IMG/VR virus record: IMGVR_UViG_3300020048_000017
Coordinates: 32,001-96,000 of that record
Source of the DNA: a virus
Length of the DNA: 64,000 bases
Strand: one strand, 5' to 3'
Shown here one piece after another: positions 33,072 to 53,984 of the stretch. The notes beneath the pieces were generated by a model. It was not told the origin of the DNA, searched no databases, and saw nothing but the letters and a program-made list of their open reading frames with translations. The stretch's first letter is position 1; each line of letters begins with the position of its first letter. A program made the translations under genes and the position numbers.

Positions 33072-33226
33072 ATGACGATCACGTAGATATCATTTCTGAA
33101 CAATTTGAGTTCGCAATAGACAAATTAATTCAAGAGGGTTATTCAGAGGTTGATATTTTAAAAGGCTTGTCTTTGACCCTGTGGAGTTTTACTGAAAGTT
33201 TTGAGGAAATTGAAGACGAGTGTTGA
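33068..33226 (+). CDS. Small acidic protein (52 aa, not in ORF track)
   Basis: MNDDHVDIISEQF...EEIEDEC*; ATGA-coupled to the endolysin stop. Confidence 0.55.
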   Translation: MNDDHVDIISEQFEFAIDKLIQEGYSEVDILKGLSLTLWSFTESFEEIEDEC

Positions 33227-34517
33227 ACCTTTAGCTATCTGCGTTGTTGCGCATGATGCTTATTTAGGTAATCTCAATCTAATCTTAAAGATGTGGGACT
33301 CTTTCGCACCTAAAGAGTGGCGTAGATTTGTATCTCTAGACGGTTGTCAATTTGATAATTCGAACCACACAAATTGGGAGGTTATTGAAAATGAAAAAAC
33401 TAATAGTCCGACTTTATCTAGAAACTCAGTTTTAAAGTTGTTAGATAGGGGTTATATACTTTATTGGGATGCAGATAACGTTCCAACTAAAGAATATGTA
33501 GATTCTATAGAAAGTCTTTTGACTTTGGAAAGTGATACGTTTTGCTGGTATCCAGATATGTATCTCCCTTACGAATCTTCTGATATTAGAGTCTTAAATT
33601 ATATAGATACTGCTTCGGTTATTAGAGTCGAACTTTTAAAAGCTATAGGAGGCTGGTCTTCGAATTTACAATGTTTACAAGATTGGGGACTTTATCTGAA
33701 AGCCCTTTCTCACGGTTTCAAATTCGAGCCCTTGAATTCTAGGTTCGTTTATTGTAAGCATGGCGACTCTCTGGGTTCCGGTTCTAAACCCAAAGAAGAC
33801 ATTCCTAAAATAAAAAGCGTAGGAGTAATCTGCCCTATGAGGGGCGACCGAAGTTTATCAAAAGTGTGGTTAGACTCCTTATCAGCTCATAACTTCCCCT
33901 CTAAAACTGGGGTAACTATCGTAGATAAAAGTGGAGACGAAAATTTCGCTCGGTGGTTAAAAATTCAAATGATTAACCTGCCTTTTGAAAGGGTTGCTTA
34001 CATAAAAGATGAACATCTTTCTGAACCCGCTTCTTTTTTTGAAATTCATAACACCGTGGGCAAATCTTACGCACTTGCTCTCAAGTCAACCCCAGAAGAT
34101 TTGATTCTCACTTGGGAAGATGACGTTACACCCCTTTCTCGGGAAGCTGCTAACTCTTTGATTTCAAATCTATTTCCAATTTCTCGATTTCATGTGCTTG
34201 GTGCTCTCGTTCCTTCTAGAGCGAATCCTAACAGATTGATTGCCAGTGAAAGTGGAGAAAAATGGTCAGGATTTATAGATGACACCGTTTCAAACATGAG
34301 GGAAATCGGGATGGTCGGTGGAGGTTTTACCCTGTGGCACCGTAGTGTTCTAGAAGAATTCGGTTTTCAAGGCTACCGATACATAGACGATCATCCCGCA
34401 GGTTGGGATGGGTGGCTTTGTAGAAGAATTAATTCTAAATACAAGATCGGTTTATATCCTGAAAAATGTCACCATGAGAGCGCTCGATCAGAGCTTTCTC
34501 AAAAAATCAGCGTATAA
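33201..34517 (+). CDS. Two-domain GT-A (GT2-like) glycosyltransferase
   Basis: WDADN and WEDDV DxD-like motifs; QDWGL; GGGFTLW. Confidence 0.75.
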   Translation: MRKLKTSVEPLAICVVAHDAYLGNLNLILKMWDSFAPKEWRRFVSLDGCQFDNSNHTNWEVIENEKTNSPTLSRNSVLKLLDRGYILYWDADNVPTKEYVDSIESLLTLESDTFCWYPDMYLPYESSDIRVLNYIDTASVIRVELLKAIGGWSSNLQCLQDWGLYLKALSHGFKFEPLNSRFVYCKHGDSLGSGSKPKEDIPKIKSVGVICPMRGDRSLSKVWLDSLSAHNFPSKTGVTIVDKSGDENFARWLKIQMINLPFERVAYIKDEHLSEPASFFEIHNTVGKSYALALKSTPEDLILTWEDDVTPLSREAANSLISNLFPISRFHVLGALVPSRANPNRLIASESGEKWSGFIDDTVSNMREIGMVGGGFTLWHRSVLEEFGFQGYRYIDDHPAGWDGWLCRRINSKYKIGLYPEKCHHESARSELSQKISV

Positions 34518-35342
34518 AGATTTGCCCATTTTATTAGCTAGGTTTTTGACTTGGCTTTTAGTTATCCAGCTATTTGAATAAGCCACTTCTTCTGGGCTAC
34601 CTATTAAGATTCCCTGTCTTTTTTGGACAGCCTTAACAAACTCTGCGGCGTCCATTAAGGAGTCTATCGTTCCCGTATCTAACCAAGCGCTGCCCTTTTT
34701 TAATTCCGAACACTCTAACAACCCTTGGTTTATGTAATAATTATTAATGTCGGTGATTTCGTATTCTAACCTAGAAGATGGTTTTAGAGACTTCGCTACG
34801 GATACTACCGAAGGTTCGTAAATATAAAGACCTACGGAAACCTTATTAGATTTTGGATGCTTGGGCTTTTCTTCAATAGAGATAATTCTACCAAACTCAT
34901 CTTTTTCTATCACCCCAAAACATTCTGGGTTGCTAACCGTTTGCGAAAAAATTACGGCAGATTTATTTCGTCCTACGTCCGCCATCCCTCTTTTTAAAGG
35001 ATTCGGCCAAAAAAGGTTATCTCCTAAAATCAGAGCCACTTCGCTATTATTTATGAAGTGTTCTCCAATTATAAATGCTTCCGCAATTCCTTTGGGTTCT
35101 GGCTGTGTAGCATAGGTTAAACTAATTCCCCATTGGTTCCCGTTGCCTAATAATTCATAAAAAGCATTTTGGTCCCGAGATGTGGTGATGATAAGAATGT
35201 CCAAAATTCCAGCAGACATTAATACCGACAAAGGATAGTAAATCATCGGTTTGTCATAAACCGGAAGAAGCTGTTTTGAAGTAACTAAAGTAATAGGGTT
35301 TAGTCTAGTTCCCGCACCCCCAGCTAATATGATACCTTTCAT
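34488..35342 (-). CDS. rfbA: Glucose-1-phosphate thymidylyltransferase
   Basis: MKGIILAGG.GTRL.P, KQLLPVYDKPMIYYPLS, ALILGDN, AWLDTGT. Confidence 0.95.
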   Translation of the reverse strand: MKGIILAGGAGTRLNPITLVTSKQLLPVYDKPMIYYPLSVLMSAGILDILIITTSRDQNAFYELLGNGNQWGISLTYATQPEPKGIAEAFIIGEHFINNSEVALILGDNLFWPNPLKRGMADVGRNKSAVIFSQTVSNPECFGVIEKDEFGRIISIEEKPKHPKSNKVSVGLYIYEPSVVSVAKSLKPSSRLEYEITDINNYYINQGLLECSELKKGSAWLDTGTIDSLMDAAEFVKAVQKRQGILIGSPEEVAYSNSWITKSQVKNLANKMGKSLYADFLRKL

Positions 35343-36259
35343 GTATAAAATTCCACAGTCTTTTTAAGAGCTTCTTCAAAATTACTCCTAGCTTTCCAGC
35401 CCAAAATCTCCATCTTCAGCGTGTTGATAGCGTATCTTAAATCGTGACCCTGTCGATCCTCAACAAACGCTATATCATAGGTTTTCCCAATAACCTTTCC
35501 TATCCTATCTATTAGCTCTAAATTGGATAGTTCGTTATTCGCCCCTATATTATAAGTCTCTCCTGACTTCCCATGCTCCGATAAGTAAATCAATGCTTCA
35601 CAATGGTCCTCTACAAAGATCCAATCTCTCACATTTGATCCATTCCCGTAAACAGGAATCGGAATATTTTGAATAATCCGGCTAATTACTTTAGGGATGA
35701 GTTTTTCAAAGTTCTGTCTGGGACCAAAATTGTTAGAACAATGCGTGATGATATTATCCATCCCATAAGTCCGATGGTAAGCCTTTACAAAATGATCAGA
35801 AGCGGCCTTTGAAGCGGAGTATGGAGAGCTTGGATTAAAAGGAGTATTTTCCATAAAAGGATCTTGCCCCATTTTTAAATCTCCATACACTTCGTCTGTT
35901 GATACGTGGATAAATCTAATACCCTTATTAAGACATTGATTCAACAAGTTAACTGTTCCGTTAACGTTCGTCTCAGTGAACAAGCTAGGGTTGTAAATAG
36001 AATTATCGACATGTGTCTCGGCGGCTAAATGAAACAAGGTATCTATTTTAGCATCTGATTTATACTTAAAGTAACTTTTTATGCAATCGGGTTTTCGGAT
36101 ATCGGCCAGATAGAAGACAGCCCTTTTGTCCACATTTCCCAATTCACTAGCGTAAGTAAGAGAATCCACGACGTAAACGTTCACGCCTTTGTCGCACAAC
36201 ATTCTCACTAAGCAAGATCCAATGAATCCTGCCCCGCCAGTTACAATAACGTTCTTCAT
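35339..36259 (-). CDS. rfbB: dTDP-glucose 4,6-dehydratase (start MKNVIV)
   Basis: TGGAGFIG, HLAAETHVD, STDEVYG, YSASKAA, RDWIFVEDH, R.GHD.RYA. Confidence 0.95.
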   Translation of the reverse strand: MKNVIVTGGAGFIGSCLVRMLCDKGVNVYVVDSLTYASELGNVDKRAVFYLADIRKPDCIKSYFKYKSDAKIDTLFHLAAETHVDNSIYNPSLFTETNVNGTVNLLNQCLNKGIRFIHVSTDEVYGDLKMGQDPFMENTPFNPSSPYSASKAASDHFVKAYHRTYGMDNIITHCSNNFGPRQNFEKLIPKVISRIIQNIPIPVYGNGSNVRDWIFVEDHCEALIYLSEHGKSGETYNIGANNELSNLELIDRIGKVIGKTYDIAFVEDRQGHDLRYAINTLKMEILGWKARSNFEEALKKTVEFYT

Positions 36260-36996
36260 AGATACTTTTTGTAAATCTTTAAGCAAACGTTATCCGCAAA
36301 AGCTTGATCAAATTTAAAAGAAATCTTTCTTTGGTCGTAGATGCTAAACAGCTCTCTCCTAGCCTCTTCTACCAATTCCCTAGCTTGTTCTGGAGTATAG
36401 TTGACTGGATTGAATTTGATATCCTTAACTAATTCAAAATGTGGATTCTGAGTGAAGTCGGTTTCAAAATAACCTTTAGTATAGAAAGTCACGGCAGAAT
36501 AAATTAGCCGCAAAGCCTGACAAGCGTTCTTGTAACTATAGCCATAGGTGTCTAGATTATTCTTGCGTTTACTTCCAAGTAGTCCGGTTCTTTCACCCAT
36601 CATTAGGCGAATCTCGTTACCGATGTAGCCTTGCTCCCTTTGAGCCTTCCCGTCGCCGCCAGTTAGGGAAACAAAAAACCTCTCGCTATCAATGAGCTTC
36701 TCTCTATTTTCAGAGATCAGATTCCATTCCGGAGAAACCTCCATCCACTTTTCGTTGAAAAGTAACTCCATAACGGTAGAATTGGTTTTACGGAGAAGGC
36801 GAAGGAAGTGGCGAAGCTCGTAATAAACTTCGTCCACTTCCCCCTTCCGGTCGATAGTATCGAATCGATCCGTATCCAACCCGATAATTCTGGATAAATC
36901 AGTATTCAAATATACGCCCCTCCAATCAACGTCCGACTCTGGCGAGTTGAGACCATACATATTAGAGCCGCCAAGACACTTACAAAGAAAGTTCAT
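36256..36996 (-). CDS. Pol-beta-superfamily nucleotidyltransferase (YcgL-like)
   Basis: GS.MYGL..PESDVDWRGVY. Confidence 0.8.
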   Translation of the reverse strand: MNFLCKCLGGSNMYGLNSPESDVDWRGVYLNTDLSRIIGLDTDRFDTIDRKGEVDEVYYELRHFLRLLRKTNSTVMELLFNEKWMEVSPEWNLISENREKLIDSERFFVSLTGGDGKAQREQGYIGNEIRLMMGERTGLLGSKRKNNLDTYGYSYKNACQALRLIYSAVTFYTKGYFETDFTQNPHFELVKDIKFNPVNYTPEQARELVEEARRELFSIYDQRKISFKFDQAFADNVCLKIYKKYL

Positions 36997-38089
36997 ATTT
37001 TATATATTTGATTTTAGATTTTTCGTCTAGGTATTTTTTATCCAAGATGCTGAAAGCGAGACCTCTGTAAGTTGAGTCGATTCTGTCCTGAATCCATAGG
37101 GCTTGAGTCTTTCGATCCTCCCCATAAATTTCAAGCAGCTCCGTCTCTAACTTGCTAACAAGGTGGTTCACCCGCTCCCAAGCTTCGTGGACTTTTTCCA
37201 AATCCTCTTTACACCGCTCTGCAACCTCAAAGCTGATAGTCGTCTCGATCAAGGTATAAGCCTCTTTTAAGGGAGGGGTTCCCGCAGATACGTAGAAATC
37301 TACCACATGCTTTATAGAAGCTAGTTCGGATTTGAGTCTATGGATTCTAAGGTAATCATCAGCCTTGATCTTTAAAAGAGACTGCCCCTTTTGAGAATAA
37401 GTTACGACACCTTCTTTTCCCACCCACAGGGTAACGTCATCGATCATTTTTTTGATTGAATCAAAATGAAACCTTTCGGGGCGAGATAAACCTTTTTCTT
37501 CTGCAAACTTGTCAAGCTCAGATTGAGTCCACAAAGAATAATCCTCATGATTTACTGCTCCGATTAAGACAAGATTTAACTTATCGTGTTTTATCACGAT
37601 TTGGTTGACAGTAGACTCCCATTCAAAAAGGAGAGAATACGGGCAAGTATCTCCTTCCAGTTCAAAAGCCGAAGGAAATTGTTTTTTTAGTTCTTGGATT
37701 TCGAATCCGTTTTCCAAGTCCTCCGCATTAGAGGTTCCTCTAGTCCGATGAATTAATTCACCTTTATATTTAGAAACAATAAGCAGTGAGCCGTCTCTTT
37801 TTTCAAGAACCTCTATCCCGCCGTTAGCCTTAGTGCTGAACGGAATATAAGTTAGATCCGGAGATTCCCCCCAGTTGAAAAACTTGGGAAACCCCAATGA
37901 AACCGGAGAGAGATCTTCCTTGCGGAAGATAACGCTCCGTAAACAAAGGTTGTGTTTGTTCCAGATAGCCCCAGCTTTTTTAGGGGTGACTAGAACGCAC
38001 TCCTCACCAGCTATAAGGATTGTCTTTTGGGAGAACCCCTCCAGATCCGAATGAAGTAAACTTTCTTTGATTTGGTTCTGGAATTTCAT
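36980..38089 (-). CDS. T4 Rnl1-like RNA ligase (start MKFQN)
   Basis: KFFNWGE, motif I EKRDGSL, LFE, EGVV, KIK...Y. Confidence 0.85.
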   Translation of the reverse strand: MKFQNQIKESLLHSDLEGFSQKTILIAGEECVLVTPKKAGAIWNKHNLCLRSVIFRKEDLSPVSLGFPKFFNWGESPDLTYIPFSTKANGGIEVLEKRDGSLLIVSKYKGELIHRTRGTSNAEDLENGFEIQELKKQFPSAFELEGDTCPYSLLFEWESTVNQIVIKHDKLNLVLIGAVNHEDYSLWTQSELDKFAEEKGLSRPERFHFDSIKKMIDDVTLWVGKEGVVTYSQKGQSLLKIKADDYLRIHRLKSELASIKHVVDFYVSAGTPPLKEAYTLIETTISFEVAERCKEDLEKVHEAWERVNHLVSKLETELLEIYGEDRKTQALWIQDRIDSTYRGLAFSILDKKYLDEKSKIKYIKYELSL

Positions 38090-38789
38090 TTTGGAGAGGT
38101 TTGAAAAGATCTTGCAAAGCAAATGTTCCGGCAAAAAGATCTACGAGATCAAAAAGGGAGTTCGCGAAGGCAAGGTCTTCTTTTGAAAGTTTTGAAAGTT
38201 CTTTATTGAGTTGGTCTCTAACGCTAAGAGCTAATTCACAACTCTCTTTTAATTGTTTCTCCCTATCTACTGGGATTTTCTCTCCGTTAATGTATACGAC
38301 TACTCTATCATTGATTTCCTCTTTGTCAAGCTCTAATTTCTTAAGAGCCCTATCTAGTGCAATTTGCACCCCGATTTTTTTGACGTAAGTGTCCTCTTTT
38401 GAGCATCGGGCTTTACCTGTAGCAGTCCTGCCGTTGGGTGTTGTGATGCAAACTTCCGTGCGACCACCCTTAGGGAGTTCTGGAAAGATGAGTCTTTCGT
38501 CTCGTCGTCGCTTGTGGTAAACGCCAACTTTGTAACCGCTTTTTCTTAGTGTTTCTACTGTGTCTTTCATTTTATTACTTTCTTCAAATCTCCCGACCGG
38601 AAACATCTCATTGCCGATTAGAATTAGTTTTTCTCCTGTTTTTACATCAAGTCTGGCGTATTCTTGTTTTAGCCATTCTTTAGGAGTCTCGTTCCATTCT
38701 TCGATGGGAAGATATTCATCCTCTTCCTGTTCCTTTTTCATGTTCTGGAATGGTCGCATCGTGAACCATGTTTGATAGCTTATCACCAC
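38004..38789 (-). CDS. Hypothetical phage protein (start uncertain)
   Basis: KGGRT...G.ARCS..D.Y.KKIG..IAL.RA motif. Confidence 0.6.
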   Translation of the reverse strand: MVISYQTWFTMRPFQNMKKEQEEDEYLPIEEWNETPKEWLKQEYARLDVKTGEKLILIGNEMFPVGRFEESNKMKDTVETLRKSGYKVGVYHKRRRDERLIFPELPKGGRTEVCITTPNGRTATGKARCSKEDTYVKKIGVQIALDRALKKLELDKEEINDRVVVYINGEKIPVDREKQLKESCELALSVRDQLNKELSKLSKEDLAFANSLFDLVDLFAGTFALQDLFKPLQNEIPEPNQRKFTSFGSGGVLPKDNPYSW

Positions 38790-38941
38790 AAATCCAAAAT
38801 GTCAACCAGTAAATTACTTCGGATAGCGGATGGGCGATTAAATTATGCACGGGCCAATTTTTATACAATTTCTTCATCTCTAAGTTTGTTTTATCTAAAT
38901 TTCGTTTTTTGTTTAGACACCTCTAATATCGTTTGCAATTC

Positions 38942-38955
38942 GTGTATATACTTGT
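38942..38955 (+). promoter_or_regulatory. Putative late-promoter motif (homing endonuclease)
   Basis: GTGTA-TATACTTGT-ATG (N9). Confidence 0.6.
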
Positions 38956-39633
38956 ATGCCCTTTAACCTTTCCTCCGCAGAAAATTTCCACAATCTAAAA
39001 TATGATTACTCAAAAGTTGATTATAAAAATGTAGATACAAAGGTTTTGATTATTTGCCCAGATCACGGAGAGTTCTTACAAACTCCTTACAAACATATTA
39101 ATATGGGTCAGGGCTGTCCTAAGTGTAAAGGCGTGAAACTCTCTAAAGACCGCAGGTTCTCTAAAGAGCAATTTGAAATTTCTGCCAGAGAAATTCATGG
39201 ATCTAAATACAATTATGAGAAGGTTCTGTATAAGAATATGCACACCAATATAGAAATTTTATGTCCCCAACATGGGGAGTTTTTTCAAAAGCCTTCGAAT
39301 CATATCTTTGATAAAAACGGTTGCCCGAAGTGTGGTTACAATGTCTCAAAATCTGAAGATTTGTGGCTTGATAGCCTTGGAATCTCAAAAGAGTTTCGTC
39401 AAAAAACTATTAAAATTCAAGATAAACGATTTAAAACCGACGCATACACCCCTTATAACAACACTGTTTATGAGTTCTTTGGATTTTTCTGGCATGGTCA
39501 TCCAGACTATTTTAACCCCGAAGACATGAACCCTCGCAATAAACAAAAGTTTGGAGATTTATATAAAGCTACTCTGAATAAAATCTCCGCCATTGAAAAT
39601 GCGGGGTTTAATCTAGTTTTTACTTGGGGTTAA
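38956..39633 (+). CDS. Free-standing homing endonuclease (zinc-finger repeats plus Vsr/DUF559-like nuclease)
   Basis: Two CP.HGEF.Q.P..H....GCPKC repeats; DAY...YEFFG.FWHG; opposite strand, converging on nadV. Confidence 0.8.
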   Translation: MPFNLSSAENFHNLKYDYSKVDYKNVDTKVLIICPDHGEFLQTPYKHINMGQGCPKCKGVKLSKDRRFSKEQFEISAREIHGSKYNYEKVLYKNMHTNIEILCPQHGEFFQKPSNHIFDKNGCPKCGYNVSKSEDLWLDSLGISKEFRQKTIKIQDKRFKTDAYTPYNNTVYEFFGFFWHGHPDYFNPEDMNPRNKQKFGDLYKATLNKISAIENAGFNLVFTWG

Positions 39634-41120
39634 ACATATTGAGCAAGGTTGTCTCTAACTTCTTGAAGTGTCCAATCTTTAATTAACTTGCCGTCTCGAA
39701 AGACGGTTTTGAGTTCGCCACCTTGTTCTTGTTCTTTAGTAACTTGATCAGTCAGCACATATTCCCCATCAACAAGATCAACTCTTAGAAGACCTTTGGC
39801 GGATTTTTTCATACCCGTATCGGTAATTGGATCTTTAAAGATCTCCCTGAATTCTCCATTAACGCTACAGGCGGTGGCTTTCGCGGCCCACGAAAGGGTA
39901 TCGCGAGTTACGTTGAACATGTATGCCCCACTGCCTATGCCGCAAAAACAACAATTCGAAGCAAACCCCATTTCCTTTAACCTCGCGAAGATTTTATCGG
40001 TGAGTTGGACCGATAGAGCCTCCCCATACAAAAGCCCAATCGTTGGATGAAGCTCCTTGTAACCTTTATCGTTAACGGTTCCTCCAAAAATATCCCATAG
40101 AAGTTGAACACAACCCTTGTGCTCTGGAGTTCCTTCTTTTGCTTCGGGATCGCCGCAAATAATTTCCAAAGGAGTTTTTGGCGAAGAGTCGGGCCTGATA
40201 ACCACCTTCCCGTCTCGCTTAAGAATATCTTCTTTCAGTGCCGGAAGGTATTCGGTTATAACAGTCCAAAGATTCCAAGTGTCGCTCACAAGCGAAAGGA
40301 TACCTGTAGGAAACGTTTCTGTGATCCACTTTTTGTAATTAGCGAATTCGTTCTCTTTGCCCCCTGCGCAAACGCAAGCGTGCTCATTCGCAACAACCCC
40401 CCCGCCGATATATTCTTTTTCGCAGTCAGCATTGTAATAATCTTCCAAGAAATCAATCGCGGGAACGTTGTCAGTTCCGGTAAAACTTAAGAGGTGCCCC
40501 GCCCCCGAAAGACAAGCGTCTTGCATTCCTCCAGATCCCCTTAGTTGGAAATCGTGAAACTGATAATTCACAACCGAAGGATCGACTCCCGTTTCTAAGG
40601 CGTATTTGAGCCCTACGTTTTTGTATCGTCTTGCGATTGTGGCACTAGTCGAAGCTTTCCAAACCGAATTCGAAAGCGCGTCTTCCACATAGTTAACGAG
40701 CCAAAAATAACCTTTAACAGTTTCTTGAAGAGTGAAAAATGGAACTCCTGCGTTAATTTTCGAGCCTTCTGGCAGAGCCTTAATCTCTAATGGCAGATAG
40801 CCTAAATCGTGCAAATCTTCGATATGTTTAGTATCGACGATACCCACCCCCAACGAGGTATCCATTCGTCTTTTATAACGCTTGATAACTACATCCTTAG
40901 GTTTATTGAAAAACTCGTCATTCCAAAGGTCTATAAGAAACCATTTGAGAAAGTATTGAAGGCCAAAAATAACAATCTTATCGTCAAGTCCTTCGATTTT
41001 CGGAAGATACTTTGTAGACCTTGGTGTGAAATTTTCATAAAGCAAATCGGTGCCTTCTTCGTGGAAGGCAATCCTATTAGTCTTATAAAAATCGACGGCG
41101 TGTAGCGGATTTAGTTTCAT
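39630..41120 (-). CDS. nadV: Nicotinamide phosphoribosyltransferase-like protein (Namat/NAMPT)
   Basis: DFYK, HDF..RG, GTD...A, A.EH, SLVSDT, VIRPDS, YGE, KKSAKG. Confidence 0.9.
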   Translation of the reverse strand: MKLNPLHAVDFYKTNRIAFHEEGTDLLYENFTPRSTKYLPKIEGLDDKIVIFGLQYFLKWFLIDLWNDEFFNKPKDVVIKRYKRRMDTSLGVGIVDTKHIEDLHDLGYLPLEIKALPEGSKINAGVPFFTLQETVKGYFWLVNYVEDALSNSVWKASTSATIARRYKNVGLKYALETGVDPSVVNYQFHDFQLRGSGGMQDACLSGAGHLLSFTGTDNVPAIDFLEDYYNADCEKEYIGGGVVANEHACVCAGGKENEFANYKKWITETFPTGILSLVSDTWNLWTVITEYLPALKEDILKRDGKVVIRPDSSPKTPLEIICGDPEAKEGTPEHKGCVQLLWDIFGGTVNDKGYKELHPTIGLLYGEALSVQLTDKIFARLKEMGFASNCCFCGIGSGAYMFNVTRDTLSWAAKATACSVNGEFREIFKDPITDTGMKKSAKGLLRVDLVDGEYVLTDQVTKEQEQGGELKTVFRDGKLIKDWTLQEVRDNLAQYV

Positions 41121-41163
41121 ATTTTTTAAGAATTTTGTATATTGTCGCGTGTAATATTATGGT

Positions 41164-41211: not shown

Positions 41212-41228
41212 GGGAGGGTTTGAAGGAT

Positions 41229-46589: not shown

Positions 46590-46999
46590 TCAAAAACTAC
46601 CGAAAGTCCGTCAATAAATCTGGGCATCGAGCCTTCCGTGGCTTTGTCGCAAGTCACTTTAATAACGCTTTTACCTCGGAGAGTTTTAGCAAGCTTTGCA
46701 TTAGCGCTCGTAATAACTGGTGGGGAATAAACATTTATAAATTTATCTAACGTCACTCGGTCCGAATCGCTAAAATCCCCAGAAGGACTCTTTGAATCAA
46801 CTCCTTCAAAATCTGGAACAAACTCTTCTTGAACTTCTGCCGCCACTTCTTCAGTTACTTCAACAGTTACTTCAACAGCCTCCTCATTAGATTCTTGAGC
46901 GATTTCTTCAACCTCAACATTCGCTACTTCTACTTTCGGTGTTTTCTTTACTGTTTTTTTGCTTGCTGCTTTTTTCATTTTACTTTTGCTTTTTATCAA
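46586..46999 (-). CDS. Protein with a Lys-rich N-terminus and a Glu/Val-rich tract
   Basis: Low-complexity composition. Confidence 0.65.
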   Translation of the reverse strand: MIKSKSKMKKAASKKTVKKTPKVEVANVEVEEIAQESNEEAVEVTVEVTEEVAAEVQEEFVPDFEGVDSKSPSGDFSDSDRVTLDKFINVYSPPVITSANAKLAKTLRGKSVIKVTCDKATEGSMPRFIDGLSVVFE

Positions 47000-47507
47000 A
47001 CTTTAAAAATCCTGATTTTTGAGCAGAACCCTCTGAAGAGGTTGGTTCAACGGCTTTCGTAAAACTATTTCTAATTTCTTCTAATAGAAGCCCTAGTTTG
47101 TTCGCGCCCGTTCCGGTCTCTTTAACTCCCCAAAAATCATCGCCCCAGTGGTTTGCGTTAATTAGGCTTTTTGACTTAGTCTTTATAAGCTTTTCTTTCA
47201 AACCTTGATCTAAAAACTTTGATTCAAGAACTTCTTTCATAATAGACTCTCTTGCGTCCATCCAGTTGCTAGGGATGGGAAGGTCTCTGGCTATATCTCT
47301 AGTCTGGTAAGGGTCTGCTTCCTGCAAGGTTTTGATAGACTCTTCTGTCGAACATCTTGCTGAGTAAAAAGCATTTGCGGCAGACGGAAATTCACGACCT
47401 TTGTATTTTACAACACAAGGAAAATTTAAAGCTAGGAACTCGAAATCTTCCAAAAAGCCAAAAACTTTACTTTCGTCCGAACTAACATATTTGAGAATAG
47501 GATTCAT
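46980..47507 (-). CDS. NADAR (YbiA)-like protein with substituted active-site acids
   Basis: W...R..IM..VL..KF, L..T, N.W.D.FWG, G.N.LG..L..IR; canonical SEH and LVE read AAN and LIN. Confidence 0.75.
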   Translation of the reverse strand: MNPILKYVSSDESKVFGFLEDFEFLALNFPCVVKYKGREFPSAANAFYSARCSTEESIKTLQEADPYQTRDIARDLPIPSNWMDARESIMKEVLESKFLDQGLKEKLIKTKSKSLINANHWGDDFWGVKETGTGANKLGLLLEEIRNSFTKAVEPTSSEGSAQKSGFLKFDKKQK

Positions 47508-47521
47508 AGTATAAATTACAC
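47508..47521 (-). promoter_or_regulatory. Putative late-promoter motif (NADAR-like operon)
   Basis: GTGTA-ATTTATACT-ATG (N9). Confidence 0.6.
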
Positions 47522-47773
47522 CTAAGATAGGAGTTCTGCCGGAATAAGTGGGGTAATATCATCACCGATGTTAAACGAAACTTCCTCGGTTTCTGCGATA
47601 AAATCAAATAATTTACGTATTTTGATTAAAAATGGAGTCTCTCCTTCTATTAAAATTACATACTCCCCATTGAAGTATGTAACTCTAGAAGTAACAACTA
47701 AATCTAAACATAAGACCTTATATAAGGAACCCTCCTGAACGCATTCTCTAACTCTTTGTATAGTAGCTTTCAT
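47522..47773 (-). CDS. Hypothetical protein
   Basis: Coupled ORF. Confidence 0.6.
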   Translation of the reverse strand: MKATIQRVRECVQEGSLYKVLCLDLVVTSRVTYFNGEYVILIEGETPFLIKIRKLFDFIAETEEVSFNIGDDITPLIPAELLS

Positions 47774-48264
47774 GCAAATGAGTTCAGTTTATTAATTTGA
47801 ATTCCAATACCATCTCTACTCATTACTAAATTATCGTCTATATCTCCCGCTTTGTGTTTGGTTCCCACTGTCTTCAAAGTCTCTTTGTTTACCCATCCTA
47901 AAATCCAAACCTTTTTCAAACTCTTCAAACATCTTACAAAAATATAGCCGTCGCATTTTTGGTCAATATAAGTGTTGATTGTGCAGTTGAAATTTCCTTT
48001 GGGTTTTACTGTGGTCATTTTTGTTTTGATATCCCATTTTTTACCCTTGTCATCCATAATATCAAAATCGTATGGATTGTATTCTGTTGGATGTAGTTTC
48101 CAACCTTTCTGTTCAAAATAATCTCCACAAACCACCTCTCCCAAAAAAGCATATAGATTTCTAGCCCCGCCCATGATCGAACTGGCGTTTAGCTTGAAGT
48201 TCTTAGCTAGGTCTTCCGCCCTAGATCTTTGATCTTCGGTTGTATTAAACTCTAAAATCTTCAT
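47770..48264 (-). CDS. PD-(D/E)XK restriction-endonuclease-like protein
   Basis: GEVV...YDFD...WDIKTK, D.YIFV, LGW. Confidence 0.65.
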   Translation of the reverse strand: MKILEFNTTEDQRSRAEDLAKNFKLNASSIMGGARNLYAFLGEVVCGDYFEQKGWKLHPTEYNPYDFDIMDDKGKKWDIKTKMTTVKPKGNFNCTINTYIDQKCDGYIFVRCLKSLKKVWILGWVNKETLKTVGTKHKAGDIDDNLVMSRDGIGIQINKLNSFA

Positions 48265-48266: not shown

Positions 48267-48659
48267 TTAATTCCTTTCATAATCTTCCTCCCTGATTCTT
48301 CTGATAATATCAGAAGTATGTTCCATAGAAGGCTTCAAATAAAAGGCCACATCCTCTGGGATTTCTAACCACTCTTTGCTCCCTCTCCATTCTTCTGATG
48401 TAAAGAATATATCACAAGGAAACTTGGAAAAAAGTTCGAGTGCTGTCCCAGAAAACAGAAGGGCTTCATCTACACATTTTAAACTTTTTATAATTCTAAG
48501 TCTATTATATTGAGTAAATACCGGAAGTCGTTTTCTGCAATCTTTGGTCTCTCTAACACCAACTATTAAAAAATCGCACTTCTCTCTGCATCGTTCTAAA
48601 AATTCCAAATGACCTACATGAAAAAGGTCGAAAGTTCCGCTAGTTAATCCTACCTTCAT
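48267..48659 (-). CDS. Cytidylyltransferase (TagD/RfaE-II-like; start MKVGL)
   Basis: GTFDLFHVGH, LIVGV, R......LKCVD, STS-like tail. Confidence 0.85.
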   Translation of the reverse strand: MKVGLTSGTFDLFHVGHLEFLERCREKCDFLIVGVRETKDCRKRLPVFTQYNRLRIIKSLKCVDEALLFSGTALELFSKFPCDIFFTSEEWRGSKEWLEIPEDVAFYLKPSMEHTSDIIRRIREEDYERN

Positions 48660-49741
48660 TCTTCTTCCCAATTTCTATCTACTTGCCTTAAATGTCCTTC
48701 AAATTCTCCAGTAGGTTCATGGAACGTATATAGATGAACGTGCTTTCCATCTCTGCGAATAATGTGGTCAGAGGGGCAGTGAGGCAATCCTCCAATTTTG
48801 ATACCGTTCGGTTGCCACCTATTCCAAATAATAAATAGATCTTCCGTCCCCTTACCTTCGTATCCGTGAAAATCAATGAGAGATAATGCTTTATTTCCAC
48901 AAAGGGTATTTCCAAATCCACACCAATCTGAAGGGATAATAGCACCCTTTCCTATACTGGGATAAGCGTAATCTAGCCAGCCCCTTTTCTTCCATCCAAA
49001 CTTGGAAGTGACACTAAACACATTTCCGTCAGGAGGACATTTTTTTTCAATATAGTTATCCCATCTTCTAATCTTATTAAAGATTGTTTTTCTTTCTTGA
49101 AGGGAAATATCCTTAAAAGGTTCGTTTTCGTTTTTAACTTTTTCTTCCAACTCAATTTCTAGAGTTTTAAGCTTTTTCTCTAAATCCTTAACTCTTTTAG
49201 AAACTCTCTCTGGAACAATTTTCTCCTCTGGATAGAAGTTTGGAAGAATTTGTCTTTGAGGAGTCCCATGTCCTAGCATGAATGGACCCCCACCTTGAGA
49301 AGGGTAGGGACAGGCTGCGACTCCATAATAACCCCTATCGAAATTCAATAAGTCTACCATACACCTAAGGCTATTAGGTTTTGGAATAACGTCGCTATCT
49401 AAAGACCAATAATAATCAGCTTGAAACTTCTGAGCTTCCAAGGCTCCAAGAGTTCTCATTTTAGCGATTAATAACTGAGCGGATTTTTTATAATTTGGCA
49501 AATCAAACTCTACTTTATCCAAAGTAATATGTTCAACTTGCCAATTTTTCGGCAAATTATGTTTATAGAAAATCTCCAATTTTTCCATTCTCTCATTTCC
49601 GCAAGAGACTAAAATTAAAAGACCTTCAACATCCTCTCCGAAATAACTCATATTTGCACAAACTGCCGTAGCCTGAGTTTTTACAGCATAAGCGTAATCC
49701 CTCGTAGCATTTATGTTAATCGCTAGTTTTTTCATTTCCAA
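48656..49741 (-). CDS. GT-A-fold glycosyltransferase-like protein with a coiled-coil insertion
   Basis: WSLDSDV, GFG.TL, EDL, DHI. Confidence 0.6.
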   Translation of the reverse strand: MEMKKLAININATRDYAYAVKTQATAVCANMSYFGEDVEGLLILVSCGNERMEKLEIFYKHNLPKNWQVEHITLDKVEFDLPNYKKSAQLLIAKMRTLGALEAQKFQADYYWSLDSDVIPKPNSLRCMVDLLNFDRGYYGVAACPYPSQGGGPFMLGHGTPQRQILPNFYPEEKIVPERVSKRVKDLEKKLKTLEIELEEKVKNENEPFKDISLQERKTIFNKIRRWDNYIEKKCPPDGNVFSVTSKFGWKKRGWLDYAYPSIGKGAIIPSDWCGFGNTLCGNKALSLIDFHGYEGKGTEDLFIIWNRWQPNGIKIGGLPHCPSDHIIRRDGKHVHLYTFHEPTGEFEGHLRQVDRNWEEE

Positions 49742-50580
49742 CGAGAAAGCTGAACAAAGATAAGTGGAAAGTATTTAGAAGGAACATCTTTTGGAGATTT
49801 CCAAGCTTCGACTCCTGTAAAATCATGCTCCTCCACTTTCGAAAGTTTCTCTTTAAACTCCTCAAAAGTCATCCCAAGCTTTCCGATCTTGTCTTCTAAA
49901 GCACTTGCGGGACCAGCACTAATACTTGTAGTTGCCTCCTCTGGCTTCTCAAAAGCTATCTCATCCTGAGTGACTATATAAACTCTTAGAAAGTTTCTAA
50001 CGGCTCTCCCGAAAGCTCTGTTCGATGCGATGGCAGTTAAATAGTTCGTTCCGAAATCTTTCGAACAATTTCCTACATGGGCATCTGCCGTTCCTGTGTA
50101 TGTCACAGGTTGCATACCTGTTTCGTAATTAGGAGTCCAAACAATCTTGCACTCTACACTAACAAACTCTGGGGAAGAATAAACCACTTTTTCTTCAACG
50201 GAAGTAAACCCTCTAAGGGCTGCTAGTTCTCTATAACCCGTAAGTTTGATAATTAAGTCATCCTCCCGAGCCTTAGCTTTCAGCTCTACAAACTCTTCTT
50301 TAGATAGAGACTCTACATCGATAGGATTTTCTTTCTTTAGAAACTTTTCTCTATTTAAAAGAATGTGTTCTTCAGGGATCATGCCCCTCCAATCGACAAG
50401 CCCCGTTCCTAAAAACTTATACTCCAAGTTTTTTCTCAATCCTTGACTATCAAATTCAATAGAGGGTGCTCTTAGAACTTCCTCTGTAGCTTTAATGGTT
50501 CTTTTTGCTCTGGGAGCTTTTTCCGCAGTCTTCTTAGCGGCGGGTTTTTGCACGGTGGCTTTAGTAGTAGCTTTTCTCAT
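49732..50580 (-). CDS. Putative single-strand annealing protein (Rad52/ERF-like)
   Basis: GL..LA..RG, ADA...N, AIA.NRAF.RAVR.FL....V..DEI. Confidence 0.45.
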   Translation of the reverse strand: MRKATTKATVQKPAAKKTAEKAPRAKRTIKATEEVLRAPSIEFDSQGLRKNLEYKFLGTGLVDWRGMIPEEHILLNREKFLKKENPIDVESLSKEEFVELKAKAREDDLIIKLTGYRELAALRGFTSVEEKVVYSSPEFVSVECKIVWTPNYETGMQPVTYTGTADAHVGNCSKDFGTNYLTAIASNRAFGRAVRNFLRVYIVTQDEIAFEKPEEATTSISAGPASALEDKIGKLGMTFEEFKEKLSKVEEHDFTGVEAWKSPKDVPSKYFPLIFVQLSRWK

Positions 50581-51728
50581 GGAATAAAAATGTAGTAGTT
50601 GTTGCTATCTTTCCAGAACGTTTCGTCTTTTGTTATAGGTATTTGCATTAGGTTTTCACCCAACGAGTTGAGGGGTAACTTAGCATTTAAATGCCACTCT
50701 GACAAGTAAAATTTTCCACCAGAGCAAAGTATTTTCGATGACTTGACTACGCTATTTGAAAAATCACCTTCTAACATTTCAGGTCTAACTATTTTCTTAG
50801 GCGCGTTGAAACTAAGTAAATCAAACTTCAAATTATCTAGTATGTCGCCGTTTTCTGTCACGACTGTATAATCAATCCCAGACTGGGACACCTCTTCAAC
50901 AAATTTAATATCTACCTCCTCATTAACTTTGTAAAGCATCGTGATTAAGTTTGGCCGGATTGCCCTTAAAGGATTCAGGTCCAATCTCCTATCTGTAATC
51001 AGCGATACTTTCCTGTCCTTGGCTATGTGTGGTAGCATTTCCTGAGAGCCACCTAAGTCTAACCGAATATTCACGATATTGTTAATAAAAAGGTTGTTTG
51101 GAAGAGGGTGGTCCGGAACAACTTCTATGATTGGGTTTTGGTAATTAGGTCCAATGTGTAAAGTTTTTTGTTTTGATTTTGGCAGTCCTAAAATACCTAA
51201 AACTCCATTTGCGATTTCTTCCGGAGTGATATAATTAATGGTTTTCGGGAATTCCTTAGGACTATGGGTTGCCCTGAGCGAATTCCTATGAGAATTAATA
51301 AAGACACTTTTAGGGTGATGGTAAAAAGGTGCGCAAACTTCTGCTAGAGTAGATCCGTATACTGAAACGCTTGGGGAGCCTAGCGCACCAGCGTTGTGAA
51401 CCCACAACGAATCGTTATCGATATGAACTAAGGAGTTAGCTACTACGTAGTTTCCTTGGTAAAGATTTGTTTTGCCTCTCAAGTCCTCACAGTGGGGAAG
51501 GAGTTGTTCCGAATGGGTTCCGATCTGAACAAACTTAACTCCGCTCAACCTCTTCCTGAGAATCTCTATAACCTCGGAAAAGTAATCATAGTTTTTACTT
51601 TCCATACCTGATCCATTATGGATAGATATGTATTCTCCTAAAACGGGGTAGTAACTCTGAAAGGGTTCCACAGGTTTCTCTGGAAGTTTTACTCCGCAGT
51701 TGTTAGCATAAATTTCCGCTAATTTCAT
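50577..51728 (-). CDS. GT-B glycosyltransferase, GT9 (heptosyltransferase)-like
   Basis: K.YDYF.EV, VQIG, DLRGKT, HID.DS...H.A.ALG.PSV..YG.T. Confidence 0.7.
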   Translation of the reverse strand: MKLAEIYANNCGVKLPEKPVEPFQSYYPVLGEYISIHNGSGMESKNYDYFSEVIEILRKRLSGVKFVQIGTHSEQLLPHCEDLRGKTNLYQGNYVVANSLVHIDNDSLWVHNAGALGSPSVSVYGSTLAEVCAPFYHHPKSVFINSHRNSLRATHSPKEFPKTINYITPEEIANGVLGILGLPKSKQKTLHIGPNYQNPIIEVVPDHPLPNNLFINNIVNIRLDLGGSQEMLPHIAKDRKVSLITDRRLDLNPLRAIRPNLITMLYKVNEEVDIKFVEEVSQSGIDYTVVTENGDILDNLKFDLLSFNAPKKIVRPEMLEGDFSNSVVKSSKILCSGGKFYLSEWHLNAKLPLNSLGENLMQIPITKDETFWKDSNNYYIFIP

Positions 51729-52156
51729 TATAATTCGTTATGTATTTTTAAATGACAGTTTGCACAGACTACCTCGCATTTTTCAATTTCCTTCAGTATT
51801 TTTTTTAAGCTGCACCCTGAAGATAACATCTTTGAGATGCTTGATTCTTTTTCTTCCGAATTCACATGATGGAACTGTAAAACTCTCGGATCGGATTCTG
51901 AGCACAAGTGGCAACCTTTGCTTACTTTATAATTATCTATTTCAAACTTATTTTTTATCCTATTGTCTCTTGCCCAAGACCTTTTATTATCTGAAAAGTG
52001 TCTGGATACAGAGCTTCTAGGTCTATTTAATACAGAGGCTATCTGGACGATAGTTTTCCCTTGAGCTTTTAATTCCTGAACTTCCTCTTTAAACTCATTG
52101 CAACTCATTCTTGTCAAGCCCGTTATGAGTATAGTTTGGGAACCTTTGTGTTGCAA
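51728..52156 (-). CDS. HTH + HNH endonuclease (free-standing homing-endonuclease type)
   Basis: QIA..LNR..SSVSRH; C..C...L.FHH...KC..VCANCH. Confidence 0.8.
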   Translation of the reverse strand: MQHKGSQTILITGLTRMSCNEFKEEVQELKAQGKTIVQIASVLNRPRSSVSRHFSDNKRSWARDNRIKNKFEIDNYKVSKGCHLCSESDPRVLQFHHVNSEEKESSISKMLSSGCSLKKILKEIEKCEVVCANCHLKIHNEL

Positions 52157-53984
52157 AAAATGGTGCGAAGAACATGTCTACCACACCAATATTAGAACCG
52201 ATACCTTCCCAAAGTTGAAAGTTTTCAAACTCTGAAGAGTAAGGGATAAGTTTGTAACCTAGAGGCTTGAATATTTGAAAGTTTTCTGGTTTTGTGCAAA
52301 CGTATATTTCATAATCGGCATAAAGTCTTTTCAAAGAATCTAAGACATTTAAACTGATATAACAATCCCCTAAGCTTTGAGGCATCATGTAACATAATTT
52401 CTTGTTATCGTTTTTCTCAATATAATCTGTCAAAAGCTTTGGACTATTCATGGCGTTATCGTTTTGAGCCTGATTTACAAAAAAATTGTAGATATCTTCT
52501 CTCGACGCGCCATTTTTCATTGACTCAAGCCAATCGTTAACCCCTTTCGAATCTTGAGATTCGTTCATGTTTAAAACCCCAGAATAAATATCTATAAGCC
52601 ACTCTGTGTCATTTTGAATTTCCGGCATCGGATACTCTGGATTTTTCTTTTCCTTTGCAAACTTATAGTCATAAGTATTCTCGGGAAGGTTGTCCACAAA
52701 GTCTTCAAAGAACTTGCCGAATTTTTCATCGCTGAATTCCTTAGTTGCCCACTCAGAACCTTTAAGTCCTTTTAATTTAAAACTTGCGGGATTTTTTTCC
52801 AGCTTTGTCATAAAGTTCTTTATAGACTCCGGTTTAGTGGAAGCTTTGATAAAATTGGAACCAACCTCTCTATAGGTATCGAAACCAATAGAGTATACGA
52901 AGTCCTTATCTGTGTATTCTGTTCCGCAAGAATACGGAACTGTAGCGACTGGTAGTCCAGCCATCATAGCTTCGATGATGGGCATTTCTAATCCTCCAGA
53001 AGTCATTGGGTGGATATAACCATCCATCATGTTATACACAATATTCATTTGCGACTCAGAAATTCCAATTGCTGGATTCGGAGTTACCATGGAGCTAGGA
53101 TGACCACAGGAATAGCAGTTAGTCTGAACTCCTACAAATGGGCTTACTGTAAATACTTTACAATTTGCACAGACATAAGTTGTCAAAACTTTGTCTTGAG
53201 GAATCCCAAACTCTTTTACAAACTCCTGAATATTCCAACCTTGAGACTCTGCCCAGCTAGTGTGTAGTAAAATCTTACCGTTTCCGCCAGCAGCTAGGTA
53301 TTTAGAAAAACCTTCTAAAAGAGATCCTACTAACTTCCTCAACTGATTTCTAAAAACAAAGCCGAAAACTTTTTCATCAGGTTTGATACCTACTGAAGTT
53401 CTGAACTTTTGTCTTTCTTCTTCCTCCATGGGGTGGAAAGCTTTATTTCCCACAGCGCCATAAACAGTCTTGACGTTATCGACGCCCTCTGCTTTTAGAG
53501 CTTTTTCTGCGAAACTTGCCCATACCCAGAAGTTTTCACATTTTTTAGCAGCTTCAATAGCCAAGGGATAAATCGGTAGAGAATCTAGCGTAGTCCAAAT
53601 GACGCAAGGAAATTTGTCCCACCATGGTTTATTCCAATATCCGTTAAATGCCCAGATATCTTCTGCCCCAAGATAAACGTCTGGCTTTTCTAATTCAATA
53701 ACCTTATCGATGTTCCCAGCCCCATAACTTACATGTCTTAAAAGAGCGTGATCTTGGATACCTTCAAGCTCTCTAGGGTTGTCAGGCAACGCTCCGTAGC
53801 ACTTCCATGGGACCTCTTTACAGCGATCATCGGACCAAGTTAAAGGTCCTGCGGCATACTCGACAATATCGTATTTACCAGTTTTCCAGAGGTAAGAAAG
53901 GACGGCTAAGGAATTTCTTCCAAAGCCTGATTTCATTTTGCTCCAGCTCCCGTGTATTAAAATCTTTTTTTTCTTCCCTTCCAT
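52095..53984 (-). CDS. GT-B glycosyltransferase, GT4-like, with a C-terminal extension
   Basis: SGFG, D.W, RNQ.RK, YN.MD......SGG.E.P..EAM..GLP; tail with LGD..I..V..L. Confidence 0.8.
   Translation of the reverse strand: MEGKKKKILIHGSWSKMKSGFGRNSLAVLSYLWKTGKYDIVEYAAGPLTWSDDRCKEVPWKCYGALPDNPRELEGIQDHALLRHVSYGAGNIDKVIELEKPDVYLGAEDIWAFNGYWNKPWWDKFPCVIWTTLDSLPIYPLAIEAAKKCENFWVWASFAEKALKAEGVDNVKTVYGAVGNKAFHPMEEEERQKFRTSVGIKPDEKVFGFVFRNQLRKLVGSLLEGFSKYLAAGGNGKILLHTSWAESQGWNIQEFVKEFGIPQDKVLTTYVCANCKVFTVSPFVGVQTNCYSCGHPSSMVTPNPAIGISESQMNIVYNMMDGYIHPMTSGGLEMPIIEAMMAGLPVATVPYSCGTEYTDKDFVYSIGFDTYREVGSNFIKASTKPESIKNFMTKLEKNPASFKLKGLKGSEWATKEFSDEKFGKFFEDFVDNLPENTYDYKFAKEKKNPEYPMPEIQNDTEWLIDIYSGVLNMNESQDSKGVNDWLESMKNGASREDIYNFFVNQAQNDNAMNSPKLLTDYIEKNDNKKLCYMMPQSLGDCYISLNVLDSLKRLYADYEIYVCTKPENFQIFKPLGYKLIPYSSEFENFQLWEGIGSNIGVVDMFFAPFFATQRFPNYTHNGLDKNELQ

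Follow-up and report, generated by a model that had tools for sequence, protein, structure and literature searches.

A predicted bipartite GT4/GT9 glycosyltransferase pair with a Gmd-like partner, conserved in a large group of uncultured aquatic phages and accompanied by variable sugar genes

The window analysed here is a stretch of 64,000 nucleotides (nt) and covers bases 32001-96000 of one viral record, which is 179,178 bp long, carries direct terminal repeats and is rated 100% complete. The source is an uncultured 179-kb aquatic phage. Window positions 33201-53984 contain a number of genes for the synthesis and transfer of sugars, which a first-pass annotation had taken as one self-contained glycosylation system. 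At the right-hand end of this interval, all on the minus strand, are found a 629 amino acid (aa) open reading frame (ORF) at 52095-53984, predicted by structure and motifs to be a glycosyltransferase (GT) of the GT4 type, a retaining family with the GT-B fold; a 383 aa GT9-like protein at 50577-51728; and a conserved 282 aa protein at 49732-50580, recognised by synteny as the third member of a trio. An ORF at 51728-52156 on the same strand lies between the two glycosyltransferase genes and resembles a homing endonuclease of the HNH type, having a helix-turn-helix (HTH) match to HTH_38 and an HNH-like Cys/His pattern in its translation. A gene for a Gmd-like 4,6-dehydratase (PF16363, 4e-84) is present outside the window at genome positions 154263-155378. 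The point of interest is this bipartite GT4/GT9 enzyme pair, which together with its Gmd-like partner belongs to the core genes of a very large group of uncultured phages and is decorated by variable sugar genes.

AlphaFold2 (AF2) models were obtained for the 629 aa and 383 aa proteins, and matches were evaluated by Foldseek and by VIA superposition. The 629 aa model has a predicted local distance difference test (pLDDT) value of 87.6. Its top Foldseek match is 3oy2, the chlorovirus protein B736L, with an E-value of 1.5e-17 and a template modelling (TM) score of 0.77 by target, followed by MshA and BshA; the Foldseek probability is 1.00 for the GT4 structures 3oy2, MshA, BshA, PimB' and PglA. 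Precomputed PF00534 domains are found on most of the homologues. The family shows invariant R212/K217 and the invariant pattern H325-P-x-T-S-G-G-x-E-x-P-x-x-E338, which are phosphate-/ribose-binding residues. It also carries an invariant Cys4 zinc ribbon (C272/C275/C290/C293), and the protein has an acidic helical linker. The first-pass assignment of a GT4-like gene at 52095 is borne out by these matches. The family is large, with at least 2,000 clusters at 90% identity, and is present in at least 571 IMG/VR loci.

The last ~105 residues of the 629 aa protein form a beta-alpha-beta-alpha unit, and the protein is predicted to be a GT4-type GT-B enzyme that ends in a Rossmann domain, the N-terminal one of a GT9 heptosyltransferase, which forms the acceptor side. 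The family profile matches residues 7-68 of 3tov (E-value = 0.04). In eight out of ten family members, the C-terminal segment is matched by four full-length heptosyltransferase (GT9) models over their positions 1-60, with E-values down to 1.9e-6, and hhalign places residues 529-562 on WaaF residues 2-35 (probability 75%). By alignment only, the invariant G-D540 of the family falls on the catalytic-loop G-D of WaaF and WaaC, where the Asp is the catalytic residue (Asp13 of WaaC).

The remaining part of a GT9 enzyme appears to be carried by the 383 aa protein. Its model has a pLDDT of 92.7, and residues 1-183 superpose on WaaF 129-345 with a VIA Z-score of 18.5, on WaaC with Z = 18.1 and on TibC with Z = 16.2. 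These residues cover the donor-binding (ADP-sugar-binding) C-domain of GT9 and the linker only. The PF01075 match of the protein passes the gathering threshold (32.3 bits vs. 22) and likewise covers profile positions 106-238 only. In sequence searches, the family profile matches 1psw at 1.1e-6, and 1psw was the one informative match of the single-sequence searches of the PDB. A D-S-x3-H donor motif aligns to NDSGLMHVAA of WaaF (D-S-G-x-x-H-x-A), with D106 present in 33, S107 in 32, H111 in 33 and A113 in 37 of 39 sequences. Thus the GT9-like gene at 50577 noted in the first pass is real. Beyond that note, however, the folds and alignments indicate that it encodes only half of a GT9 enzyme, the other half being fused to the product of the GT4 gene.

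Residues 194-378 of the 383 aa protein (window 50577-51155 for residues 194-383) form a poorly conserved alpha/beta domain, modelled at pLDDT >90 and having almost no invariant residues. Fold matches of this domain are middling and partial, to TIM-barrel radical S-adenosylmethionine (SAM) enzymes. A radical SAM identity was rejected; the Z-score is only ~8.7, the translation shows no CxxxCxxC motif and there are few conserved columns. The 383 aa family comprises 703 protein clusters (50% identity) at E<=1e-30. The best 150 of these are all 377-413 aa long, and no fused GT9 form is found among them.

The two Rossmann domains of the GT-B fold are therefore not found in one polypeptide; the C-domain lies in the 383 aa protein and the start of the N-domain at the end of the 629 aa protein. 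Since the 629 aa piece corresponds to GT9 positions 1-60 and the 383 aa piece to positions 129-345, the two are complementary and do not overlap. This has the appearance of a GT9 enzyme split across two genes. Both cut ends are conserved and are modelled with low confidence. In the 629 aa protein the conserved residues are Q613, Y618 and N621 (pLDDT <50 over 616-629), and in the 383 aa protein they are H2, E5, Y7, A8, G12, K14 and P18, at pLDDT 57-74. Such a combination is expected of an interface. The 629 aa and 383 aa polypeptides would dock in the manner of Alg13/Alg14 and rebuild the GT9 cleft, and in this way the GT9 activity would be tethered to the GT4 activity. The docked complex, with its two transferase activities, would attach one sugar after the other to a single acceptor. 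One donor may be a GDP-sugar from the core Gmd-like dehydratase and the other an ADP-heptose-like compound.

A split-intein "fractured gene", as in the nearby DnaE, was considered as the origin of the split and was rejected, as no intein-like sequence was seen at the cut ends in the sequences and the family consensus, no intein profile having been run. Insertions recur at the junction of the two glycosyltransferase genes. At least six relatives (L042, L043, L046, L052, L053 and L055, at ~11880-12550) show a ~650-bp gap at this position, and a partial homologue of the HTH/HNH ORF is kept in the closest relative, L005. The DnaE gene of this genome is itself interrupted by a NUMOD3 endonuclease gene (55757-56734).

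Synteny was examined in 84 fetched IMG/VR loci holding the 629 aa family. The 629, 383 and 282 aa genes are present in 84, 84 and 79 of these, respectively, in a fixed order that consists of the C-fragment of DnaE (DnaE_C), a gene similar to those for single-stranded DNA-binding proteins (SSB-like), and the 629, 383 and 282 aa genes. Upstream of the trio are helicase, primase, PD-(D/E)XK nuclease, PHP, proofreading exonuclease and DnaE genes. In most relatives 12-40 nt separate the 629 and 383 aa genes, and it is in this phage that the HNH endonuclease-like gene stands between them. The 282 aa gene directly follows the 383 aa gene in 79/84 loci and so travels with the pair. The 282 aa family has 33 invariant columns and a basic N-terminal tail that is not conserved; no match was found in Pfam, PHROGs or PDB sequences. 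The first-pass annotation had placed the two GT-B genes between an SSB-like gene and one for an annealing protein, and neither of these identities found support in profile searches or in searches of solved-structure sequences.

The distribution of the sugar genes was determined in 21 related records that hold the trio, six of them near-complete, and by comparison of this phage with four complete relatives (158-184 kb). The ORFs that find a match in each of these four number 34 and include the trio and the Gmd-like gene. The Gmd-like gene is found in 16/21 records and in 6/6 near-complete records. RmlA-type genes are found in 5/21 and 0/6, and the PF01467 nucleotidyltransferase described below in 6/21 and 4/6. 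A second short-chain dehydrogenase/reductase (SDR) varies between relatives and is RmlB, GalE-like or Fcl-like. Each of the other sugar genes of the interval occurs in only 1 to 6 of the 84 loci. The 629 aa protein of L005 is 69% identical to that of this phage and the GT-A gene at 48656 is kept there, but the nucleotidyltransferase and the methyltransferase pair are missing. Thus the trio and Gmd are core to the clade, and a sporadic distribution is seen for RmlA, GT2, the nucleotidyltransferase and the methyltransferase pair. The core glycosyltransferase genes do not co-occur with the rhamnose genes across relatives, an outcome that the first-pass annotation had itself named as grounds for refutation, and the one system of the first-pass annotation falls apart into a core and sporadic additions. 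That annotation had not included the Gmd-like gene, which belongs to the sugar set. Closely related phages differ in their accessory sugar genes, a pattern that diversifying selection on a trait would be expected to produce.

No near isolate was found for this phage. A megablast search with the interval as query found nothing similar at the DNA level among 50,697 phage records, tblastn of the 629, 383, 282 and 361 aa proteins against isolates gave remote matches or none, and the DnaE of the phage shows at most 29% identity to any isolate DnaE. Thus no cultured relative was found.

Besides four supported genes of the glycosyltransferase type, the unusually rich sugar toolkit comprises two nucleotide-sugar dehydratases, RmlA, a reductase and a small nucleotidyltransferase. 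An RmlA-type glucose-1-phosphate thymidylyltransferase is found at 34488-35342 (minus strand; PF00483, 228 bits, full length) and is 50-55% identical to many copies on viral contigs. The adjacent ORF at 35339-36286 (minus strand) is RmlB, dTDP-glucose 4,6-dehydratase, and with 367.6 bits passes the equivalog cut-off of TIGR01181 (365.1). The RfbA and RfbB of the first-pass annotation are therefore genuine. At 21300-22088 (minus strand), 13 kb from RmlA/RmlB, lies a 262 aa divergent RmlD-like SDR (PF04321, 2e-15). It scores 47 bits for TIGR01214, where the cut-off is 224, and among the relatives compared an orthologue is found in G001 only. It is probably a 4-keto-sugar reductase, judging from the family match; it had been described as an epimerase-reductase, of which the reductase part is supported and the epimerase role is not. 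RmlC was not found in the genome. Because RmlC is absent and the RmlD-like protein lies far below the cut-off, a 6-deoxy sugar is supported but the L-rhamnose of the proposed rhamnose glycan is not established. If the missing steps are not provided by the host, the product is probably some other 6-deoxyhexose.

A 134 aa nucleotidyltransferase (PF01467, 1.8e-14) is encoded at 48267-48671 on the minus strand and overlaps the 361 aa gene by 16 nt, in agreement with the coupling to a glycosyltransferase gene seen in the first pass. Among the NCBIfam models the best match is rfaE domain II, the heptose-1-phosphate adenylyltransferase (7e-16), and TagD is second (3e-10), both below the equivalog cut-offs. 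The enzyme is probably a sugar-1-phosphate (heptose-type) or glycerol-phosphate nucleotidyltransferase, and the polyol-phosphate decoration that had been proposed thus rests on an enzyme for which TagD comes only in second place. A role as NMN adenylyltransferase, serving the NAD+ genes of the interval, was rejected; NMNAT scores are far weaker than those for the heptose and glycerol-phosphate enzymes, and homologues adjoin Gmd in relatives (G001 and G013). Genes for the early heptose pathway (SIS, PfkB) were not found in the genome. Because these genes and RmlC are missing and the RmlD-like protein is so far below its cut-off, the toolkit is not the self-contained one that had been claimed.

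In three of the related records an NTP_transferase ORF of ~250-470 aa is found within ~2.5 kb of the Gmd-like gene (G006:C1:98273-99984, G016:C1:61180-63891 and G021:C1:32878-36950). By their domain match these ORFs may be mannose-1-phosphate guanylyltransferases, which would supply GDP-mannose.

The 361 aa ORF at 48656-49741 (minus strand) is accepted as a putative glycosyltransferase of the GT-A fold, on weaker support than the core pair. In the ESM Atlas it gives features of 0.97 and TM scores of 0.52-0.60 to viral GT2/GT25/Anp1 clusters, and the family has an invariant S113-x-D115-S116-D117. There are 193 metagenomic homologues, all unnamed, one of which (P0160, 577 aa) is fused to a GT34 domain; one homologue carries a name from a Verrucomicrobiota metagenome-assembled genome (MAG). 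Pfam matches are weak (E ~0.01-0.02), and the profile searched against PDB sequences gave only noise. The gene is restricted to a sub-clade, being present in one of the 84 loci (L005). Residues ~165-235 are a Lys/Glu-rich, coiled-coil-like insertion that draws spurious coiled-coil matches.

On the plus strand, a putative 438 aa GT2-like glycosyltransferase (33201-34517; PF13632, E-value = 0.0086) directly follows a PG_binding_1 gene recognised by its profile match (32184-33071), an arrangement that had been noted correctly. Seven of its ten homologues have precomputed GT2 domains (PF00535 or PF13641). Genome-wide, the only PF00535 matches are weak ones in the 361 aa and 438 aa ORFs (E-values of 0.011 and 0.029). 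The gene had been described as a two-domain GT2; the GT2 assignment has some, weaker support, and the two halves show no detectable similarity to each other (hhalign probability 2%). A pattern scan found no IMG/VR relatives of the 438 aa and 361 aa genes.

A 169 aa class I SAM methyltransferase is found at 43454-43963 (minus strand; Methyltransf_11, 1e-8), and its partner, a 226 aa protein, at 43960-44640 on the same strand. The methyltransferase gene shows 4-nt overlaps on both sides, with the 226 aa gene and with an RNA ligase gene. The 226 aa protein has no family match in Pfam, PHROGs or NCBIfam, and its ESM Atlas leads, to WavE and GT2, are weak (0.91-0.92). Of the methyltransferase coupled to a glycosyltransferase proposed earlier, the enzyme and the overlap are thus confirmed but the glycosyltransferase fold of 43960-44640 is not. 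In 10/14 viral loci that are otherwise unrelated, the 226 aa gene adjoins a methyltransferase homologue, and four of these loci have Gmd-, SDR- or GT2-like genes as well. Since the pairing recurs in unrelated loci beside sugar genes, the two genes appear to be a mobile cassette in a sugar context. A Hen1-like RNA-repair methyltransferase, suggested by the overlap with the RNA ligase gene, was rejected as the main interpretation; the partner in the 10/14 other phages is the 226 aa gene, the RNA ligase of this phage is matched in none of the 14 loci, and L005 has the ligase without the methyltransferase.

A sigma-70 consensus with 12/12 matches (TTGACA, 16 nt, TATAAT) is found on the minus strand at 45191-45164, just upstream of the phrog_335 gene. 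This gene is followed by the 226 aa, methyltransferase and RNA ligase genes with overlaps of -1, -4 and -4 nt. From the promoter consensus and the gene overlaps, these four genes look like one transcription unit.

The interval is best read as a mosaic of three layers, with the core pair docking as described, and this reading is given a probability of roughly 0.6. The first layer is the core module. The second is lineage-specific and would vary the glycan; it consists of the GT-A gene at 48656-49741, the small nucleotidyltransferase, the 226 aa and methyltransferase cassette, RmlA/RmlB with the GT2 gene, and the RmlD-like reductase. The third is unrelated to sugars and has nuclease and homing endonuclease genes as well as genes that serve RNA repair, NAD+ reconstitution and the handling of ADP-ribose. 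The folds, motifs, split, synteny and distribution are observed, and the docking, the donors and the acceptor are inferred from them.

Several observations weigh against this reading. The 629 aa protein scores 22-23 bits against Pfam GT4 cut-offs of 26.4 and 27, so that its GT4 assignment relies on homologues and structure. The GT9 N-part is short (~105 aa) and every single match to it is weak. D106 of the donor motif is replaced by N in 4/39 sequences. The two halves could act separately, or the 383 aa protein could be a non-catalytic sugar-nucleotide binder. As to the GDP-sugar donor, the Gmd-like proteins give 300-360 bits for TIGR01472 in relatives and 261 in this phage, where the equivalog cut-off is 415, and because of these scores the substrate may not be GDP-mannose. 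A location in a replisome operon agrees better with a role directed at DNA than with one in the virion, and the virion glycosyltransferases of mycobacteriophages sit among structural genes.

The closest known enzymes are the GT9 heptosyltransferases WaaC and WaaF and the protein heptosyltransferase TibC. The fold of the C-domain and the D-S-x3-H motif are shared with these (Z 16-18.5), as is an N-terminal beta-alpha-beta unit with G-D at the position of the catalytic Asp. In contrast to them, the phage enzyme would be divided at the interdomain linker into two polypeptides, with a shortened N-part fused to the end of a GT4 protein and a C-part that has an extra alpha/beta domain, and it is encoded in a phage replisome operon. 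In Alg13/Alg14 and related bacterial two-gene GT-B enzymes, separately encoded Rossmann halves dock into a working GT-B enzyme (PMC8993221). The same docking logic is proposed for the phage pair by analogy. However, Alg13/Alg14 belong to the MurG-like family and not to GT9, serve membrane-anchored synthesis of lipid-linked glycans and are not fused to a second transferase.

B736L, to which the GT4 part is structurally most similar, prefers GDP-mannose and has been tied to the viral GMD and to capsid D-rhamnose (PMC4691112). This parallels the pairing of the core GT4 with Gmd here, a GT4 being kept with a Gmd-like gene in both. B736L belongs to the machinery with which giant algal viruses glycosylate their capsids autonomously; virion glycosylation in the phage would be a guess. 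The phage protein differs in having ~13% identity to B736L, a bacterial host, and an added zinc ribbon, linker and GT9 N-domain. Likeness to 3OY2 is common to the T4 alpha-glucosyltransferase as well (PMC6024577) and so does not discriminate between acceptors. The dTDP-L-rhamnose pathway RmlABCD is matched in the adjacent RmlA and RmlB, and is not matched in the absence of RmlC and in the short, divergent and distant RmlD-like protein.

The acceptor cannot be read from the sequence, as the first-pass annotation had stated. A phage-made protein such as a virion protein would be the most probable single acceptor, at somewhat under even odds, with DNA, the host envelope or small molecules, and anything else each about half as probable. 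Glycosylation of the phage's own DNA by the core GT4/GT9 pair to evade restriction, as by the T4 glucosyltransferases and the metagenomic 5-hydroxymethylcytosine (5hmC) glycosyltransferases, is the alternative that survives best and is nevertheless unlikely. It would explain the position of the pair in the replisome operon (helicase, primase, DnaE), directly after the SSB-like gene in 84/84 loci, the invariant zinc ribbon, and a clade-wide variation of sugar-nucleotide enzymes such as an arms race would produce. The known systems, the alpha- and beta-glucosyltransferases of T4 and the 5mYOX/ThyS-linked GT-A/GT-B clusters, also resemble the phage pair in having soluble GT-B enzymes similar to MshA/BshA. 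In metagenomic phage clusters of this kind, again with genes near replication genes, heptosylated 5hmC has been shown, one cluster using a cytidylyltransferase to put heptose on 5hmC by way of a methyltransferase, a dioxygenase and a GT-B enzyme (10.1101/2023.12.21.572611). However, a hydroxymethylated base is needed in known phage DNA glycosylation. The ThyA-type hydroxymethylase (PF00303) is absent from this genome and from all 21 related records, and no C5-methyltransferase (PF00145), TGT/DpdA or TET/JBP (PF12851) was found in this genome, the TET search having been made without a working positive control. Thus there is no known source of a hydroxylated base, and the absence of the hydroxymethylase from 22 clade records weighs against DNA glycosylation of the known type. 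The proteins of the pair are acidic to neutral (GT9 N-domain ~-4, linker ~-8), and no T4 glucosyltransferase is among the top Foldseek matches listed. It is very unlikely that the GT4/split-GT9 pair, perhaps with the 282 aa protein, glycosylates phage DNA without the known hydroxymethyl-pyrimidine precursors. If true, this would be a new kind of DNA sugar modification common to a very large aquatic phage group.

Just upstream of the Gmd-like gene, at L183:4958-6234 (genome 152958-154234), is an AlkB-type 2-oxoglutarate (2OG)-Fe(II) oxygenase (PF13532, 7e-16) with a DnaJ-like zinc-finger insertion, followed by a gene for an HD-domain protein. The oxygenase is a possible candidate for a base hydroxylase and has no tblastn match in the four complete relatives.

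Another possibility is that the GT9 pieces do not reassemble, the C-terminal piece of the 629 aa protein being an oligomerisation or docking domain and the 383 aa protein a stand-alone nucleotide-sugar-binding or regulatory protein. The weakness of the single N-part matches (E-value of 0.04, hhalign probability of 75%) and the variation of D106 would agree with this, and the second domain of the 383 aa protein might take over the acceptor side. Against it, the pieces fit together without overlap, their genes are adjacent in 84/84 loci, the G-D at the catalytic position is invariant and the donor motif is kept, which makes it distinctly unlikely.

About equally improbable is that the glycosyltransferases alter the envelope of the infected host (its capsule, O-antigen or lipopolysaccharide (LPS) inner core), which might serve, for instance, to prevent superinfection or to draw off the host's sugar nucleotides. 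The classical members of GT9 are LPS heptosyltransferases, genes such as RmlA/RmlB and Gmd are common in O-antigen gene sets, and the one protein name from a MAG supports Verrucomicrobiota, which have an outer membrane, as a possible host. Receptor-modifying glycosyltransferases are normally accessory genes of temperate phages, whereas this pair occurs throughout the clade and forms part of the replisome operon in a large phage, and a GT9 acceptor domain that is truncated and fused to another enzyme is unlike the LPS core enzymes. None of the glycosyltransferase candidates has a hydrophobic segment that could span a membrane; WaaC and WaaF are likewise soluble or peripheral enzymes.

Least likely of all is the first-pass proposal that all the listed genes form one pathway to a methylated, polyol-phosphate-decorated rhamnose glycan, with early glycosyltransferases acting on DNA or envelope and late ones on the virion: the genes do fall within a span of 21 kb, the RmlA and RmlB assignments hold, translational coupling links the methyltransferase with the 226 aa gene and the nucleotidyltransferase with the GT-A gene, and the cassette recurs beside sugar genes in other phages, but the rhamnose pathway is incomplete, the distributions of the genes differ, the nucleotidyltransferase is closer to the heptose adenylyltransferase domain than to TagD, and unrelated modules are interleaved.

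Glycosyltransferases encoded by phages are known; most are accessory genes that serve to glucosylate DNA, to convert receptors or, in a few instances, to build virion glycans. The fixed glycosyltransferase pair and the sugar dehydratase described here match the replisome in conservation. The group that shares them comprises at least 571 IMG/VR contigs, with 703 protein clusters at 50% identity, and glycosylation therefore looks like a basic part of the workings of these abundant aquatic phages. This corrects the picture of one large "glycosylation island". A split GT9 fused to a GT4 would be a compact natural two-enzyme assembly line for a glycan and a tractable case for the reassembly of GT-B halves. 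Identification of the acceptor would either add a major environmental phage group to those with glycosylated virions or bring new DNA chemistry to light.

Most of the genes in the first-pass list are real, but some half of the interval 33201-53984 does not concern sugars. Unrelated modules recognised by Pfam occupy 36256-43457 on the minus strand and consist of RlaP, an Rnl1-like ligase, a NAMPT-like and Prs-like pair and a second RNA ligase (42219-43457). The NAMPT-like gene (39630-41120; NAPRTase match, 7.5e-25) and the Prs-like gene (41229-42071; Pribosyltran match, 3.2e-8) are 108 nt apart on the same strand. This fits the gene arrangement (Adps + Namat) of NARP1, an NAD+ reconstitution system (10.1101/2024.02.11.579819), and the pair at 39630-42071 may be called NARP1-like by gene adjacency. 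A second unrelated or unassigned segment, at 44640-48264 (minus strand; profiles), holds the phrog_335 "phosphatase" gene, small ORFs, a DUF4915/TIGR03032 gene, NADAR and a 164 aa ORF that shows a PD-(D/E)xK-like motif read by eye and no profile match. The DUF4915/TIGR03032 gene (45813-46589, minus strand) is recognised by its profile matches and would correspond to the putative beta-propeller gene noted in the first pass.

Directly downstream of the RmlD-like gene, at 18302-21303 on the minus strand, are ORFs of 640 aa and 360 aa without Pfam matches. A GHKL-like G-x-G motif can be made out by eye in the 640 aa ORF, and the two, with homologues in G001-G003, are perhaps an rIIA/rIIB-like pair. 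Elsewhere in the genome, Pfam matches identify an ATP-dependent DNA ligase followed by a WGR/PARP_reg/PARP protein at 155390-158259, and a PspA/IM30 homologue is present at 159531-160271.

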